17,080 bases of DNA from an uncultured archaeon. Lineage in GTDB: Archaea > Altiarchaeota > Altiarchaeia > IMC4 > SCGC-AAA252-I15. Below, one piece after another: positions 12,790-17,080 of this stretch. A program made the position numbers and the translations under genes. The stretch's first letter is position 1. The number at the start of each line of letters is the position of its first letter. The DNA is taken from NCBI GenBank assembly GCA_964587725.1, contig CAZPLO010000001.1, positions 236,377 to 253,456 of the forward strand. The letters are read 5' to 3'. Under the pieces are notes generated by a model, which made no database searches, was not told the origin of the DNA, and saw nothing but the letters and a program-made list of their open reading frames with translations.

Positions 12790-13941
12790 CTACGTCACAA
12801 TCTCCTCTACGCGGCTATGTTCCACGGCCTCGCGCATCATCTTGGCGGTCCTGCGGCCGGTGCTCATCTCCCGCCTCCACAGGGTGTTCCCGTAGGGGTG
12901 GCCGACGCTCATGTGCACGTTAGTGCCTCCGCCGATGCGGGGGGCGACGTCGTATATGAAAAAGTTCAGGTCCTTGTCGACGCAGGTCTGCAGGCAGAAC
13001 GCGCCTATGATGCCCGGCTTATAGTGTTTCTGCGTTGCCTCCACCCACTTCTCCGCAAGGCCGAACGCCTTCTCCAGCAACGATTCGCGGAGGGTGGCGC
13101 TGTTGTGGCCGCATACAGTATATTCGGGCAGCCGCTGCCGTTCATTCAACGTCATCTGCTGCTGCGCCGGCAGCCGGACGTGGCCGTCGAGACTGGATTC
13201 GAAGCGCCAGTCCACACCCAGCAGCTCAATCTTCGGCAGCTCCTCCTCCAACGGGTTGTAGAAGAAGTCCAGGTTGAATACCGGCCCCACAATGTACCGT
13301 TCAATCCTCGCAACAGCCAGCGCCTCCTCGGTTATCACGCCCTGATTCAGCAGCTCCCCCGCCTTCTCCTCGTACTCCTGTTGGCTGGCGGCGGTGAAGA
13401 ACCCCCGCTCCAGCTTCTTCTCGGCGTGGTGGAGTTTCACCATCACCAGCCCGTCTATGTCCCCTGGATTAACCTCCTCGGGGTACGGTAGCCCCGCCTT
13501 ATTCAAGAGCCAGTAGTAGTTTTTCTTCCCCCCCCGTTCCTCACTCCTCAGCATGTTCCTGGAACCCACCAGCGGAACCTTGAAACCGTCTTCTATGACG
13601 TCGAGGCTGACGTATGATGTGAATGCGCGGTTGGGTATGAACAGCACATTATCCTTCCGCATAGCCTCCTGCTCCCCATCAGAAACAATCTCGTCGAATC
13701 TTTCGTAGACTTTGCATTCGTCGACGCACCCCCTGACCACGTCACCCTTAACCCTCCTGCTTCTGAAGTATTGGGCGTACGTCTTCTCCCTACCCCTCCT
13801 ACAATACAACACGGTGTTGAACCCTTCGGCCGCCGCCCCGTCGGCCGCGTCCAACGCGGAATGGGATGCGAGCACACCAGCCTTAACATTCTTCAGGTCG
13901 TACTCTTCGACCACATCCGCTATCTCGTCTCTCCCAATCAT
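12790..13941 (-). CDS. PurP-like paralogue (second archaeal PurP subfamily)
   Basis: VLASHSALDAADGA, IPNRAF, KKLERGFF in place of the GGKG loop, GAFCLQ, DVAPRIGGGTN, MSTGRR. Confidence 0.88.
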   Translation of the reverse strand: MIGRDEIADVVEEYDLKNVKAGVLASHSALDAADGAAAEGFNTVLYCRRGREKTYAQYFRSRRVKGDVVRGCVDECKVYERFDEIVSDGEQEAMRKDNVLFIPNRAFTSYVSLDVIEDGFKVPLVGSRNMLRSEERGGKKNYYWLLNKAGLPYPEEVNPGDIDGLVMVKLHHAEKKLERGFFTAASQQEYEEKAGELLNQGVITEEALAVARIERYIVGPVFNLDFFYNPLEEELPKIELLGVDWRFESSLDGHVRLPAQQQMTLNERQRLPEYTVCGHNSATLRESLLEKAFGLAEKWVEATQKHYKPGIIGAFCLQTCVDKDLNFFIYDVAPRIGGGTNVHMSVGHPYGNTLWRREMSTGRRTAKMMREAVEHSRVEEIVT

Positions 13942-13972: not shown

Positions 13973-16090
13973 CTACCCTGAGGCACCCATTTCAGCGAGC
14001 TGCTCCCGTATCTGCCTGGCATTCTGGTCGTTCGGCGCCAGCTCCAAGTACGTCCTCCACGCATCCGCAGCACCCCCATAGTCTCCGGAGTTATAGTATA
14101 TTACCCCCAGGTTCAGGTACGCCATCGCATACTCCGGGTCCTCCGACACGATAAGGGTGTACTGTTCCGCCGCGTCGTTTAGTCTGCCCTCCGTCATCAG
14201 CAGCCCCGCCAGGTTGAACCGCGCCCTCAGGTACGTGGGGTCTATCTTCAACGCATTCATGTAGTGTCGCCGGGCGTTCTCCCGCTCCCCCAGCAGGGCG
14301 TAGGCGTATCCGAGGTTGTTCTGTGCCTTGGCATTCCGGGGGTTCTCAGAGAGAACGCTCTTGAACTCATCCACCGCACCCCGGTAGTCACCTTCAGCCA
14401 ACAGGAGGTTCCCGATGTCGTACCTCACACCCATGTCATACGGCAGCATGGTCTTCAGTTCCTCCAGCAGCTTCAGGGCCCTGTTCCGGTCGCCGTCGAG
14501 GTAGTGTTCGGCGAGGCGTGTATAGTAGATGGCTTTGATGTTGCGGGACATGTAGTCCAAGTGTATGGTGGTGTCCCATATCTGACGGTAATCATACGGG
14601 CTCCAGTAATCCCTGTCAGGCAACCCCTCACCCTCCTCAACAACCAGGTATACGAGGCCGGTCTGCTCCAGCCTGTAACCCGGCAACGCCACGTTCTCCC
14701 TGGTTGTGTAGTACACCGGCCTGCCTTCTTCAACGACCTCCAACTCCACCTCCCTCCTCCGCGCCTCGTGTTCCGCGGGCTCTAAAGTTACATAGTCTAT
14801 GCCGTATAATTCATGGCTGAGTATGCCGCCGCGCTCATACAACGTCACGTCCGGCCGCACACCCTCGACATACAGTAAGTAGCTGAGCGGCAGCACCGTG
14901 TTGTCCCCTTCAGCGAATATCACCGCATCCTCCTCCACGGTCTTGAGGATGTTCATGCCGTAGTCATACGCCAGCAGGTTCCTGCTGCGGTCGCTGACGC
15001 CATAATTCGAAGCCAACACGATGAGCACGGCGACGATGACACCCGCCTCCTTCATCCACCGGAAACTATTCAGCCAACTGAAAACCTCCTTTAATCCGAA
15101 ACCCCCCCACACGCCCAACACTATTATGCTGGGTATGCTGAACGTCGTAGCCTCCAACGGCGCGTTGTTGAGGAATAATGCGTACACCAGGTCCGCGGCC
15201 ACCATCAATATCGTGTAATTGAGCAGCTTCCTCTTCCCGCCGCCGTGCGAGTATAAACCCCCCGCCACCAATGCGCCGGCCAGCGAATACTGCCGGAGGT
15301 AGTGGAAGATTAAACCACTTAACCTGCCAATCAACTCCCCTGTCGTCAACGTCAAAACGTATGTTTGGCGGTGTACGAACCCAGTGACATGGTTTATGAA
15401 CCTGCCAGGTGTGCCGGGGTCCCCCCAGTTATATGCGGGGTTTCTGGACGCCGCCAACGGGATATACAGGTAGAGGAGCAGCGGCGCTGCAAAATAGGCG
15501 GCGGCCTTCTCCAAGTCGACCTTCTTCAGCTCGTCGTCCCTGTCCGCACTCACCAGGTAAGCGAAGGCCGGCGCATACAGTATGGCGGATACGTGGTTTG
15601 TCAACGCCAGTCCGTAGGCGGCGGCAAACATCAGCAGCAGCCCCGGGGTTTTCTCCTCACGCCACTTCAACGCCAGCAGCAGAAGCACCGCCGTGAAGAA
15701 TCCGTTCATCATGTACGCTTCCGCCACCGTGGCCTGGTCCCACACGGCGGTGGAGAAGGCAACCATCAACCCCGCTCCAGCACCCGCCTTCCAAGACTTC
15801 GTAAGCAGATGAACTATCACGCACACGACCACCGCGGTCGCGGCAGCAAACAACGCACTCATCAGATTGTACCTGTAGGCTACACCCCCCACAGGAATGA
15901 ACGAAAACACCTTGCCCAACAGCATATACAGCGGATACCCGGTGGGATGGGACACCCCCAGCGTGTAAGACGCGGTTATGAAGTCCCCGCTGTCGCCTCC
16001 GTAGACTGTCGGGCACAGCGTCACCAGATACACGATTGCCGCCGCCGCGAACACGAAGCCGACGGCCAGTTTGCTTTCACCGACTTCCAT
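13973..16090 (-). CDS. DUF2723 (TMEM260-like) polytopic membrane glycosyltransferase with C-terminal TPR repeats
   Basis: GDSGDF...LGVSHPTGYPLY, QATVAEAY, TNH, NWGDP, GDNT motifs; many hydrophobic helices; several TPR units (AQNNLGYAY, ARFNLAGLL, AYLNLGVIY). Confidence 0.85.
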   Translation of the reverse strand: MEVGESKLAVGFVFAAAAIVYLVTLCPTVYGGDSGDFITASYTLGVSHPTGYPLYMLLGKVFSFIPVGGVAYRYNLMSALFAAATAVVVCVIVHLLTKSWKAGAGAGLMVAFSTAVWDQATVAEAYMMNGFFTAVLLLLALKWREEKTPGLLLMFAAAYGLALTNHVSAILYAPAFAYLVSADRDDELKKVDLEKAAAYFAAPLLLYLYIPLAASRNPAYNWGDPGTPGRFINHVTGFVHRQTYVLTLTTGELIGRLSGLIFHYLRQYSLAGALVAGGLYSHGGGKRKLLNYTILMVAADLVYALFLNNAPLEATTFSIPSIIVLGVWGGFGLKEVFSWLNSFRWMKEAGVIVAVLIVLASNYGVSDRSRNLLAYDYGMNILKTVEEDAVIFAEGDNTVLPLSYLLYVEGVRPDVTLYERGGILSHELYGIDYVTLEPAEHEARRREVELEVVEEGRPVYYTTRENVALPGYRLEQTGLVYLVVEEGEGLPDRDYWSPYDYRQIWDTTIHLDYMSRNIKAIYYTRLAEHYLDGDRNRALKLLEELKTMLPYDMGVRYDIGNLLLAEGDYRGAVDEFKSVLSENPRNAKAQNNLGYAYALLGERENARRHYMNALKIDPTYLRARFNLAGLLMTEGRLNDAAEQYTLIVSEDPEYAMAYLNLGVIYYNSGDYGGAADAWRTYLELAPNDQNARQIREQLAEMGASG

Positions 16091-16772: not shown

Positions 16773-16950
16773 GGGCCTGTAGCCTAGCGGATAAGGCGAC
16801 AGCCTTCTAAGAACCGTCACGCCGGTTCACGGGCGAAGCGGGTGCCACAGCCGAGACATTCGTCTCACCTGTGGAACACACTACCAAGCCGCCCGCACAC
16901 TATGGTTCGAAGGAAGCTGTAGATCGTGGGTTCGAATCCCACCAGGCCCG
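16773..16950 (+). tRNA. tRNA-Arg(TCT) with canonical 37/38 intron; exons 16773-16809 and 16915-16950; CCA not encoded
   Basis: Acceptor GGGCCTG/CAGGCCC+G, D-arm GCCT..AGGC, anticodon stem ACAGC/GCTGT with TCT at 16806-16808, T-arm GTGGG-TTCGAAT-CCCAC. Confidence 0.95.
16810..16914 (+). other. 105-nt BHB tRNA intron
   Basis: Strict bulge-helix-bulge: ACAGC-CTTC-TA^A-GAACC pairs with GGTTC-GAAG-GA^A-GCTGT. Confidence 0.92.
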
Positions 16951-16963
16951 AAAACACAGTCTA

Positions 16964-17044
16964 AGATCGTGGGTTCGAACGCCGTCCCCAAAGGGGACGG
17001 CGCGCCAAAACAGCCCCGCTGTTTTGTGCGTCCCACCAGGCCCG
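16964..17044 (+). repeat. Duplicated tRNA-Arg 3' end interrupted by a 51-nt double-hairpin insert
   Basis: AGATCGTGGGTTCGAA (16964-16979) plus TCCCACCAGGCCCG (17031-17044) together equal tRNA 16921-16950 exactly; the insert is 16980-17030. Confidence 0.92.
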
Positions 17045-17080
17045 AATTGTTGAATGTATGTCAGACCAGCTTTATTTATT

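Follow-up and report, generated by a model that had tools for sequence, protein, structure and literature searches.

A predicted 105-nt tRNA-Arg(TCT) intron in an uncultured altiarchaeon carries a structured repeat that also lies beside other RNA genes

Why does a tRNA-Arg(TCT) gene of an uncultured archaeon of the Altiarchaeota contain an intron of 105 nt, and where might the interior of that intron have come from? In the consulted sections of a review, archaeal tRNA introns range from 11 to 129 nt, with medians of 12-25 nt (PMC4090602). The gene lies near the end of a stretch of 17,080 nt (hereafter the window; contig CAZPLO010000001.1 of assembly GCA_964587725.1, positions 236,377 to 253,456), which is the last 17 kb of contig C1 in a genome of 1.56 Mb and 48 contigs (G000). 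An earlier note, made from the letters of the window, had described the intron as a 25-nt intron expanded by a hairpin insertion with duplication of the motif GGTTC, and had suggested a sheltered structured element, a splicing switch or a functional circular RNA.

The only RNA gene recognized by Rfam in the window was a tRNA at 16773-16950 (56.3 bits) with approximately 107 nt inserted in the anticodon loop. ARAGORN called no tRNA in the window by default, without its intron option; with the intron option it reported tRNA-Arg(tct), intron(38,105), that is, 105 nt at the canonical position 37/38, and both programs therefore bear out the intron that the earlier note had placed here. In the canonical register, the anticodon stem (ACAGC/GCTGT) is followed by a central helix of 4 bp, CTTC (16804-07) with GAAG (16909-12), which is flanked by two bulges of 3 nt each (TA/A and GA/A), and by an outer helix in which GAACC (16811-15) pairs with the distal of two GGTTC motifs (16904-08). 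The genome encodes a single EndA (170 aa; PF01974/PF02778), for which the best solved relative is 1a79 (full length, E 4e-39), and which we take from this resemblance to be of the strict homotetrameric type; its closest database homologues share 62-86% identity with it and carry the names Altiarchaeota or Altiarchaeales in their source records. Homotetrameric EndA requires a canonical bulge-helix-bulge motif. In each of four DNA runs that are possibly the source samples, the whole stretch is present in a single contig, with no joints and no indels. As modelled here, the locus is a genuine, unusually long, canonical archaeal tRNA intron, which is predicted to be spliced.

Folding of the whole precursor without constraint gave -80.2 kcal/mol and a cloverleaf with the splice-motif arrangement, and the arm plus intron folded at -51.8 kcal/mol (z = -5.36), a stability reached by none of 200 shuffles. 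The free minimum slides the central helix by 1 nt; the textbook register, when enforced, gave -48.1 kcal/mol, at a cost of 3.7 kcal/mol. In the minimum-free-energy fold, the outer helix has 7 bp (GAACCGT:ATGGTTC, 16811-17:16902-08). The long interior hairpin drawn in the earlier note survived in part: its CCACAG/CTGTGG and GAGAC-ATTC-GTCTC pairings are present in this fold, but its basal helix CGGGCG/CGCCCG is replaced by GCGGGTG (16838-44) paired with CGCCCGC (16890-96). A motif search of 16810-16914 found neither CTGA nor TGATGA, in agreement with the earlier remark that C/D boxes are missing, and an Rfam search at a permissive E-value returned, beyond the tRNA itself, noise and no snoRNA match.

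The sequence at the start of the intron also occurs outside introns. In a BLAST search of related genomes, the first 31 nt of the intron matched, at 97% identity, a non-intron sequence of the relative G010 that begins 2 nt past the 3' end of tRNA-Gly(TCC), and a second non-intron copy was found 3' of a C/D box small RNA (sRNA). Alignment of seven pieces defined a structured repeat of approximately 60 nt, here called class B, which consists of a P1 hairpin, a joiner ACRNGCGNRGCG, a variable P2 hairpin and GCACT; P1 has 6 bp and a loop of either TCACGC(C) or CTCGCT. A covariance model of this repeat (R1) was built from 7 seed sequences, the intron copy among them, and the intron copy ranks fifth by score among the 36 R1 matches. 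Because the intron copy was itself a seed, its score of 65.4 bits is partly by construction; the 97% identity over 31 nt in G010, however, provides independent support. These results uphold the suggestion that a structured element shelters in the intron, since 16810-16883 matches a model of a repeat that lies beside other RNA genes.

Class B is widespread in the family to which G000 belongs, with R1 matches at E <= 0.01 in 18 of its 21 genomes, 8 copies in G000, and retention in 10 of 11 genera. Across the order, with G000 left out and at E <= 1e-4, R1 matched in 14 of 20 in family f1, 4 of 22 in f5 and 1 of 1 in f7, and in none from four other families. Over 36 copies, the modelled pairs were formed in 98.5% of cells compared to 80.5% in shuffles, and 46 double-sided changes were counted compared to 11.9 in shuffles, with none of 500 shuffles matching either value; pairing fell to 17-32% when the helix partners were slid. 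The two outer pairs of P2 covary, being AU in 20 copies and GC in 14. Three or four class B copies bear a further insertion of approximately 49 nt, made of two small hairpins, in the P1 loop (G000 C1:97440-97640, C9:32364-32480, L188 and L007), the orthologous intron of G020 being among these copies. At the first of these sites, a 17-nt direct repeat GTGGTGGCGGCCTGTAG flanks the element, with RNA-like sequence downstream. Rfam at gathering score reported nothing in the class B-bearing region C1:97300-98100, and it missed the long-intron tRNAs on contigs C12 and C22; in total, 20 tRNAs passed Rfam in this genome, which is 92% complete.

Two structural alternatives for the repeat were considered by eye. 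An H/ACA guide has a pseudouridylation pocket, a K-turn or K-loop in the upper stem, and ACA after the lower stem; in class B no tandem G.A pairs were seen in P2, the P2 of other copies ends in plain tetraloops, and Rfam gave no match. The other alternative, pairing of the P1 loop with the joiner as a pseudoknot, was discarded, since covariation between the joiner and the two types of loop is not consistent.

The positions of the copies were determined by reading the flanks of 33 class B copies as well as those of the 8 copies in G000, and several of the following counts are approximate. About 8 copies start 0-3 nt past the discriminator of an intact tRNA, 4 lie directly 3' of a duplicated tRNA 3' end, and about 7 follow an 11-26-nt fragment of a tRNA 5' end and are themselves followed by an A-rich spacer and a complete tRNA. 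Two copies are in canonical introns, namely Arg(TCT) of G000 and Arg(GCG) of G020 (L198); one of the 33 follows a C/D sRNA, as does the G000 copy at C9:32409; and two lie within a hairpin of a larger RNA; the other copies were left unassigned. In these two (L177 in G008 and L180 in G012), the hairpin is GGGCTCCAG ... CTGGAGCGC, and the repeat occupies the same place in two genera.

The occupants of such sites differ between relatives. The C/D sRNA (G000 C9:32309-32363, orthologues L217-L228) is kept in most genera of the family, and was found in 13 of the 21 genomes by BLAST and in 10 by a box-motif regular expression; in those 10, the sequence directly after the D box is class B in 2, a different A/T-rich hairpin module in 2 and unrelated sequence in 6. 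At the tRNA-Glu loci of the congeners G000 and G001, an upstream 5' fragment is present in both (26 vs 15 nt), but a different module stands behind each fragment and the introns differ too. Another hairpin module recurs in three introns, those of Arg(TCT) and Glu in G001 and that of Arg(TCG) in G000. This turnover of loci, together with the copies at junctions of partial duplications, points to mobility or recombination at the DNA level. Two observations on arrays belong beside these: two near-identical metagenome contigs (L212 and L214) carry one and two copies, respectively, of an 81-nt unit that ends in a tRNA-Arg(TCT) 3' end, and a run of N lies within a tandem array of class B and leader sequence upstream of tRNA-Arg(TCG) in G000 (C22, ~2740-2840).

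Orthologues of tRNA-Arg(TCT) were located in 15 of the 21 family genomes. Nine are intron-less (G002, G003, G004, G005, G008, G012, G013, G017 and G018) and six bear an intron, with lengths of 105 nt in G000, 79 in G001, 32 in G011, 201 in G014 and 141 in G020, and an implied length of approximately 197 nt in G016, where each exon is on a contig of its own and the two contigs share an overlap of 73 nt. The G020 gene was called Gly(tcc) by ARAGORN, and its loop reads as that of Arg(TCT) in G000. Three Arg(TCT) orthologues from another family have no intron. A scan of metagenomes for the exon end joined to the intron start returned 12 loci, one of them a chance match; the other 11 are variants that bear an intron, and for 8 of these an intron of 55-201 nt was called. 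These introns start with (A/C)GA(A/G)(C/T)C and end with the matching strand plus GAAG-like nucleotides, while their interiors differ, so that the Arg(TCT) introns keep a conserved frame around a remodelled interior. Among them, class B is present only in G000 and G020, the introns of which are homologous over their full length, including the 3' part of the G000 intron (16884..16914), and other members of both genera are without this intron. No intron of 25 nt or less was found among 17 intron-bearing orthologues (3 without a called length), and the shortest has 32 nt; the short form of about 25 nt that had been predicted in relatives therefore did not appear. The broader idea, that hairpin modules reshape the interior of a conserved intron, agrees with the shared ends and differing interiors, but the specific insertion of 80 nt is not supported.

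The reading that we favour, at a probability of roughly 0.6, is that the intron is spliced in the ordinary way and that the module within it is a passenger, either mobile or prone to recombination. The gene would be functional, and its pre-tRNA would fold as a cloverleaf in which the anticodon stem is extended by CTTC:GAAG, two 3-nt bulges and then GAACCGT:ATGGTTC with the distal GGTTC; the single EndA would cut both bulges, with ligation of the exons to follow. Its initial 74 nt make the intron the carrier of a complete class B copy rather than of the remnant of a short intron plus an insert; the proximal GGTTC is the 3' strand of the module's own hairpin, and the distal GGTTC is a part of the conserved intron frame. 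In this family, class B and its sister hairpin modules occupy the discarded parts of stable-RNA genes (introns, leaders and trailers), and the module would be tolerated in the intron because the conserved intron ends still form the splice motif around it.

Several points weigh against this reading. Splicing itself is our inference, and the covariation alignment, having been fitted to the R1 structure, is biased in favour of paired positions. A functional RNA, too, would be expected to show compensatory changes in both hairpins and a conserved unpaired joiner, and all copies with an assigned setting sit in portions of stable-RNA precursors that are transcribed and then discarded. The G000 copies are diverged and not near-identical, and therefore show no sign of a recent burst. 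The contigs of the four DNA runs contain no intron-less or module-less allele. No enzyme that moves the modules was found: profile searches with RVT_1 and with the Y1 transposase profile (Y1_Tnp) gave no match, the single tyrosine-recombinase match in the genome (PF00589, Phage_integrase) is on contig C27 and not near the locus, Cas1 is present in just 2 of the 21 family genomes, and two class B patterns had no match in viral contigs. Of the specific mechanisms, insertion of the IS200/IS605 type was rejected for want of a common target motif 5' of the class B copies and of a Y1 transposase, and a casposon-like mechanism was rejected because the duplication lengths vary and Cas1 is rare.

The two GGTTC motifs allow two further explanations. 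GGTTC does occur at 16824-16828 and 16904-16908, with GAACC present once (at 16811), and deletion of 16829-16908 does leave 25 nt, as the earlier note had computed. A repeated 5-mer is expected by chance in 105 nt (7 repeated 5-mer pairs compared to a mean of 6.1 over 2000 shuffles, 99% of which contained at least one pair), and the GGTTC pair is notable instead because both motifs complement GAACC and because the layout of a proximal GAACC-loop-GGTTC hairpin with a distal GGTTC recurs in the orthologous introns of G020 and G016. On the insertion account, an ancestral 25-nt intron (A-GAACCG-TCACGC-CGGTTC-GAAG-GA) gained an 80-nt hairpin at 16829-16908 and duplicated a 5-bp target, GGTTC; the splice motif would be left intact, G011 has a short intron of similar layout, and the ~49-nt insertions in the P1 loop of other copies are likewise nested. 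However, the junction 16828/16829 falls between P1 and the joiner of a single unit: P1 and the ACGGGCG.AGCG... that follows it are contiguous outside introns (e.g., L012 and L140 in G010), and the junction therefore lies inside one element. Moreover, BLAST found no second copy of the 80-nt piece in the genome, and the short form was not seen in the relatives, which leaves this account improbable. Even less credible is a splicing switch, in which the proximal hairpin would sequester GAACC, block the outer helix and gate maturation of the tRNA. In its favour, either pairing can be drawn, transcription reaches the proximal hairpin before the distal motif, and the layout recurs in three orthologues; at equilibrium, however, the distal GGTTC is paired with P = 0.998 and the proximal hairpin forms with P = 0.002, which does not support a thermodynamic switch. 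Forcing P1 to form costs 4.5 kcal/mol, another fold is better than P1 even when just the first 52 nt are considered, and the hairpin is generic to class B copies that are unrelated to splicing.

Class B may instead be a functional small RNA that is released by RNase Z from trailers, by RNase P from leaders and by EndA from introns, in which case the intron copy would yield a stable, probably circular RNA of 105 nt. The strong covariation of P1 and P2, the unpaired joiner, the short distance (0-3 nt) that separates the start of assigned copies from the mature 3' end of the preceding RNA, the persistence of the family across genera, the excess structure of the intron over shuffles and the parallel with the C/D guide in tRNA-Trp introns all favour this. 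Yet occupancy of loci is not conserved (class B at 2 of 10 orthologous sRNA loci, and Glu loci that differ between congeners), unrelated modules occupy the same places, no C/D boxes, K-turn (by eye) or Rfam match besides tRNA were seen, and many copies lie at junctions of partial gene duplications, which points to rearrangement of DNA; we consider a functional RNA unlikely. A bolder form of the passenger-module reading, somewhat less doubtful than the functional RNA but still tentative, is that class B and its sister modules are tiny non-autonomous mobile elements that target stable-RNA genes in Altiarchaeota, with the copies of tRNA ends as part of the mechanism. Such elements would insert into tRNA and sRNA genes, either in a loop or at a mature end. 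They would persist in one of two ways: the gene is restored by a long duplication of its end, or the element becomes all or part of a spliceable intron at position 37/38.

Compared to known systems, the locus shares with canonical archaeal bulge-helix-bulge introns the 37/38 position, the 4-bp central helix with two 3-nt bulges and the single EndA gene, but it is long and its interior repeat is shared with non-intron sites. The tRNA-Trp introns of Euryarchaeota that contain a C/D guide are also long and also hold a structured passenger releasable by splicing, according to the consulted sections of PMC4090602; the passenger described here, however, has neither C/D boxes nor an Rfam snoRNA match, exists in multiple copies and is present in leaders and trailers as well. 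In Thermoproteales, intron transposition is described from near-identical introns in different tRNA isoacceptors (Fujishima et al. 2010, as cited in the same sections of PMC4090602). Similarly, class B is found in Arg(TCT) and Arg(GCG) introns, and another module in Arg(TCT), Glu and Arg(TCG) introns, although the lineage is different, the EndA is homotetrameric-like, and the modules also sit outside introns by tRNAs, a C/D sRNA and other RNAs. Since the repeat in its interior is specific to the lineage, covaries and also occurs at the flanks of other RNA genes, the locus is a variation on the sharing or transposition of intron sequences already known among archaeal tRNA genes. In the consulted parts of the literature that mentions Altiarchaeota together with tRNA introns or tRNA-gene repeats, nothing on these modules was found.

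The features of the locus are collected in Table 1.

Table 1. Coordinates of the tRNA-Arg(TCT) gene, its intron and the adjoining copies within the window.
Feature	Position	Strand	Evidence
tRNA-Arg(TCT) 5' exon, positions 1-37	16773..16809	+	Rfam RF00005, 56.3 bits; ARAGORN with intron option
105-nt intron at canonical 37/38, bounded by a predicted bulge-helix-bulge	16810..16914	+	Rfam, ARAGORN, folding
Class B copy: P1, conserved joiner, P2, 3' ACACTA motif	16810..16883	+	model R1, 65.4 bits, E 4.8e-14
Class B P1: GAACCG, loop TCACGC, CGGTTC; contains the proximal GGTTC	16811..16828	+	covaries over 36 copies
Class B conserved single-stranded joiner ACGGGCGAAGCGG	16829..16841	+	invariant or near-invariant columns of alignment A1
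Class B P2, lengthened here by an inner GAGAC-ATTC-GTCTC stem-loop	16842..16877	+	folding
3' part of intron: CGCCCGC strand of the long-range helix, distal GGTTC (16904-08), GAAG strand of the central helix, GA of the 3' bulge	16884..16914	+	
tRNA-Arg(TCT) 3' exon, with the discriminator G at its end	16915..16950	+	Rfam; ARAGORN
Second copy of variable region, 5' strand of the T-stem and TTCGAA; same sequence as 16921-16936	16964..16979	+	
Class A, a 51-nt two-hairpin insert in the T-loop (59/60) of the partial tRNA copy, right after TTCGAA	16980..17030	+	nhmmer, 8 instances aligned
Second copy of the tRNA 3' end, from T60 through the discriminator and 2 nt beyond; same sequence as 16937-16952	17031..17046	+	

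A partial second copy of the tRNA starts 13 nt after the gene and is interrupted by a further insert, here called class A, with the layout CG-hairpin-CGCGCC-hairpin-GAGCG-like. A hidden Markov model search found four class A inserts in G000 (Arg, Phe, Asp and Ser), all inside partial tRNA copies, and class A is also present in G001, G012 and G018. Class A was rejected as a spliced T-loop intron, given that it is found only in partial gene copies, that no bulge-helix-bulge could be drawn by eye and that EndA resembles the strict homotetrameric type. Most tRNA genes of G000 have copies of their ends nearby: among 21 tRNAs examined, the 3' end recurs exactly or nearly so within the 350 nt downstream of 12 (copies of 14-23 nt, most of which begin within the T-loop and end at the discriminator), and 6 have a copy of their own 5' end (12-33 nt) upstream. 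Some of the tRNA-end copies form tandem arrays (e.g., G000 C1:144681-145260, C1:103880-104130, C10:12159-12250 and C22:2700-3020). By eye, duplicated 3' ends are often paired with an upstream complementary strand as a minihelix resembling an acceptor/T-arm with a large loop, as seen for Val, Gly, Thr and Ser of G000 and in L212; the enlarged loop contains (A/G)TAAGCGAG...GAGCGG (e.g., G000 C2:41482-41565, C1:145065-145200, and C23 downstream of 399; also L212/L214), and in a diverged Thr copy the pairing is kept through changes on both strands.

The end of the window (17026-17080) overlaps C18:1-55 by exactly 55 nt, which indicates that the assembly break is a graph artefact and that the locus continues into C18; C18 proceeds into an ordinary-looking gene, and no large island was seen past the window end in this continuation. 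In G001, by comparison, 3 kb separate tRNA-Arg(TCT) from a displaced 3' fragment (L147, C3:487800-491400), and this piece contains an open reading frame of 491 aa that matches nothing in Pfam and a gene for a Fic/DOC protein that has a winged helix at its C-terminus, and no integrase. Integrative elements of the SSV/pNOB8 type rebuild the tRNA gene and leave a direct repeat of its end, as in the Caldiarchaeum model (Sugahara et al. 2012, PMC3293823). The exact repeat of a 3' end behind an intact tRNA (17031-17046), the 5'-end fragments upstream of other tRNAs and the 3-kb piece in G001 are shared with such elements; however, the intervening pieces in G000 are only ~60-150 nt, the duplication lengths vary (12-33 nt), no integrase is adjacent and the contig continues into a housekeeping-looking gene. 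By analogy, the flank pattern resembles the signature of a rebuilt tRNA plus direct repeat, on a miniature scale and without integrases.

Two neighbouring genes, both on the minus strand, have no apparent link to the intron: 12790-13941 encodes a DUF1246/DUF1297 protein, presumably PurP-like, and 13973-16090 encodes a 705-aa TMEM260-like protein with TPR repeats.

The arrival and movement of archaeal tRNA introns is an open question, and a preprint of 2026 on tRNA introns in Asgard archaea closes its abstract with the words "how they arrive remains open". In the altiarchaeal genomes studied here, the same covarying module is found in three settings, namely within canonical introns, directly 3' of mature tRNAs and sRNAs, and at the points where partial duplications of tRNA genes join, and its turnover between congeners offers a concrete, countable system for intron gain and expansion and for the fragmentation of tRNA genes. 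If the modules are indeed mobile elements of stable-RNA genes, the tRNA-Arg(TCT) locus would be a case of archaeal tRNA intron gain and enlargement caught in the act.

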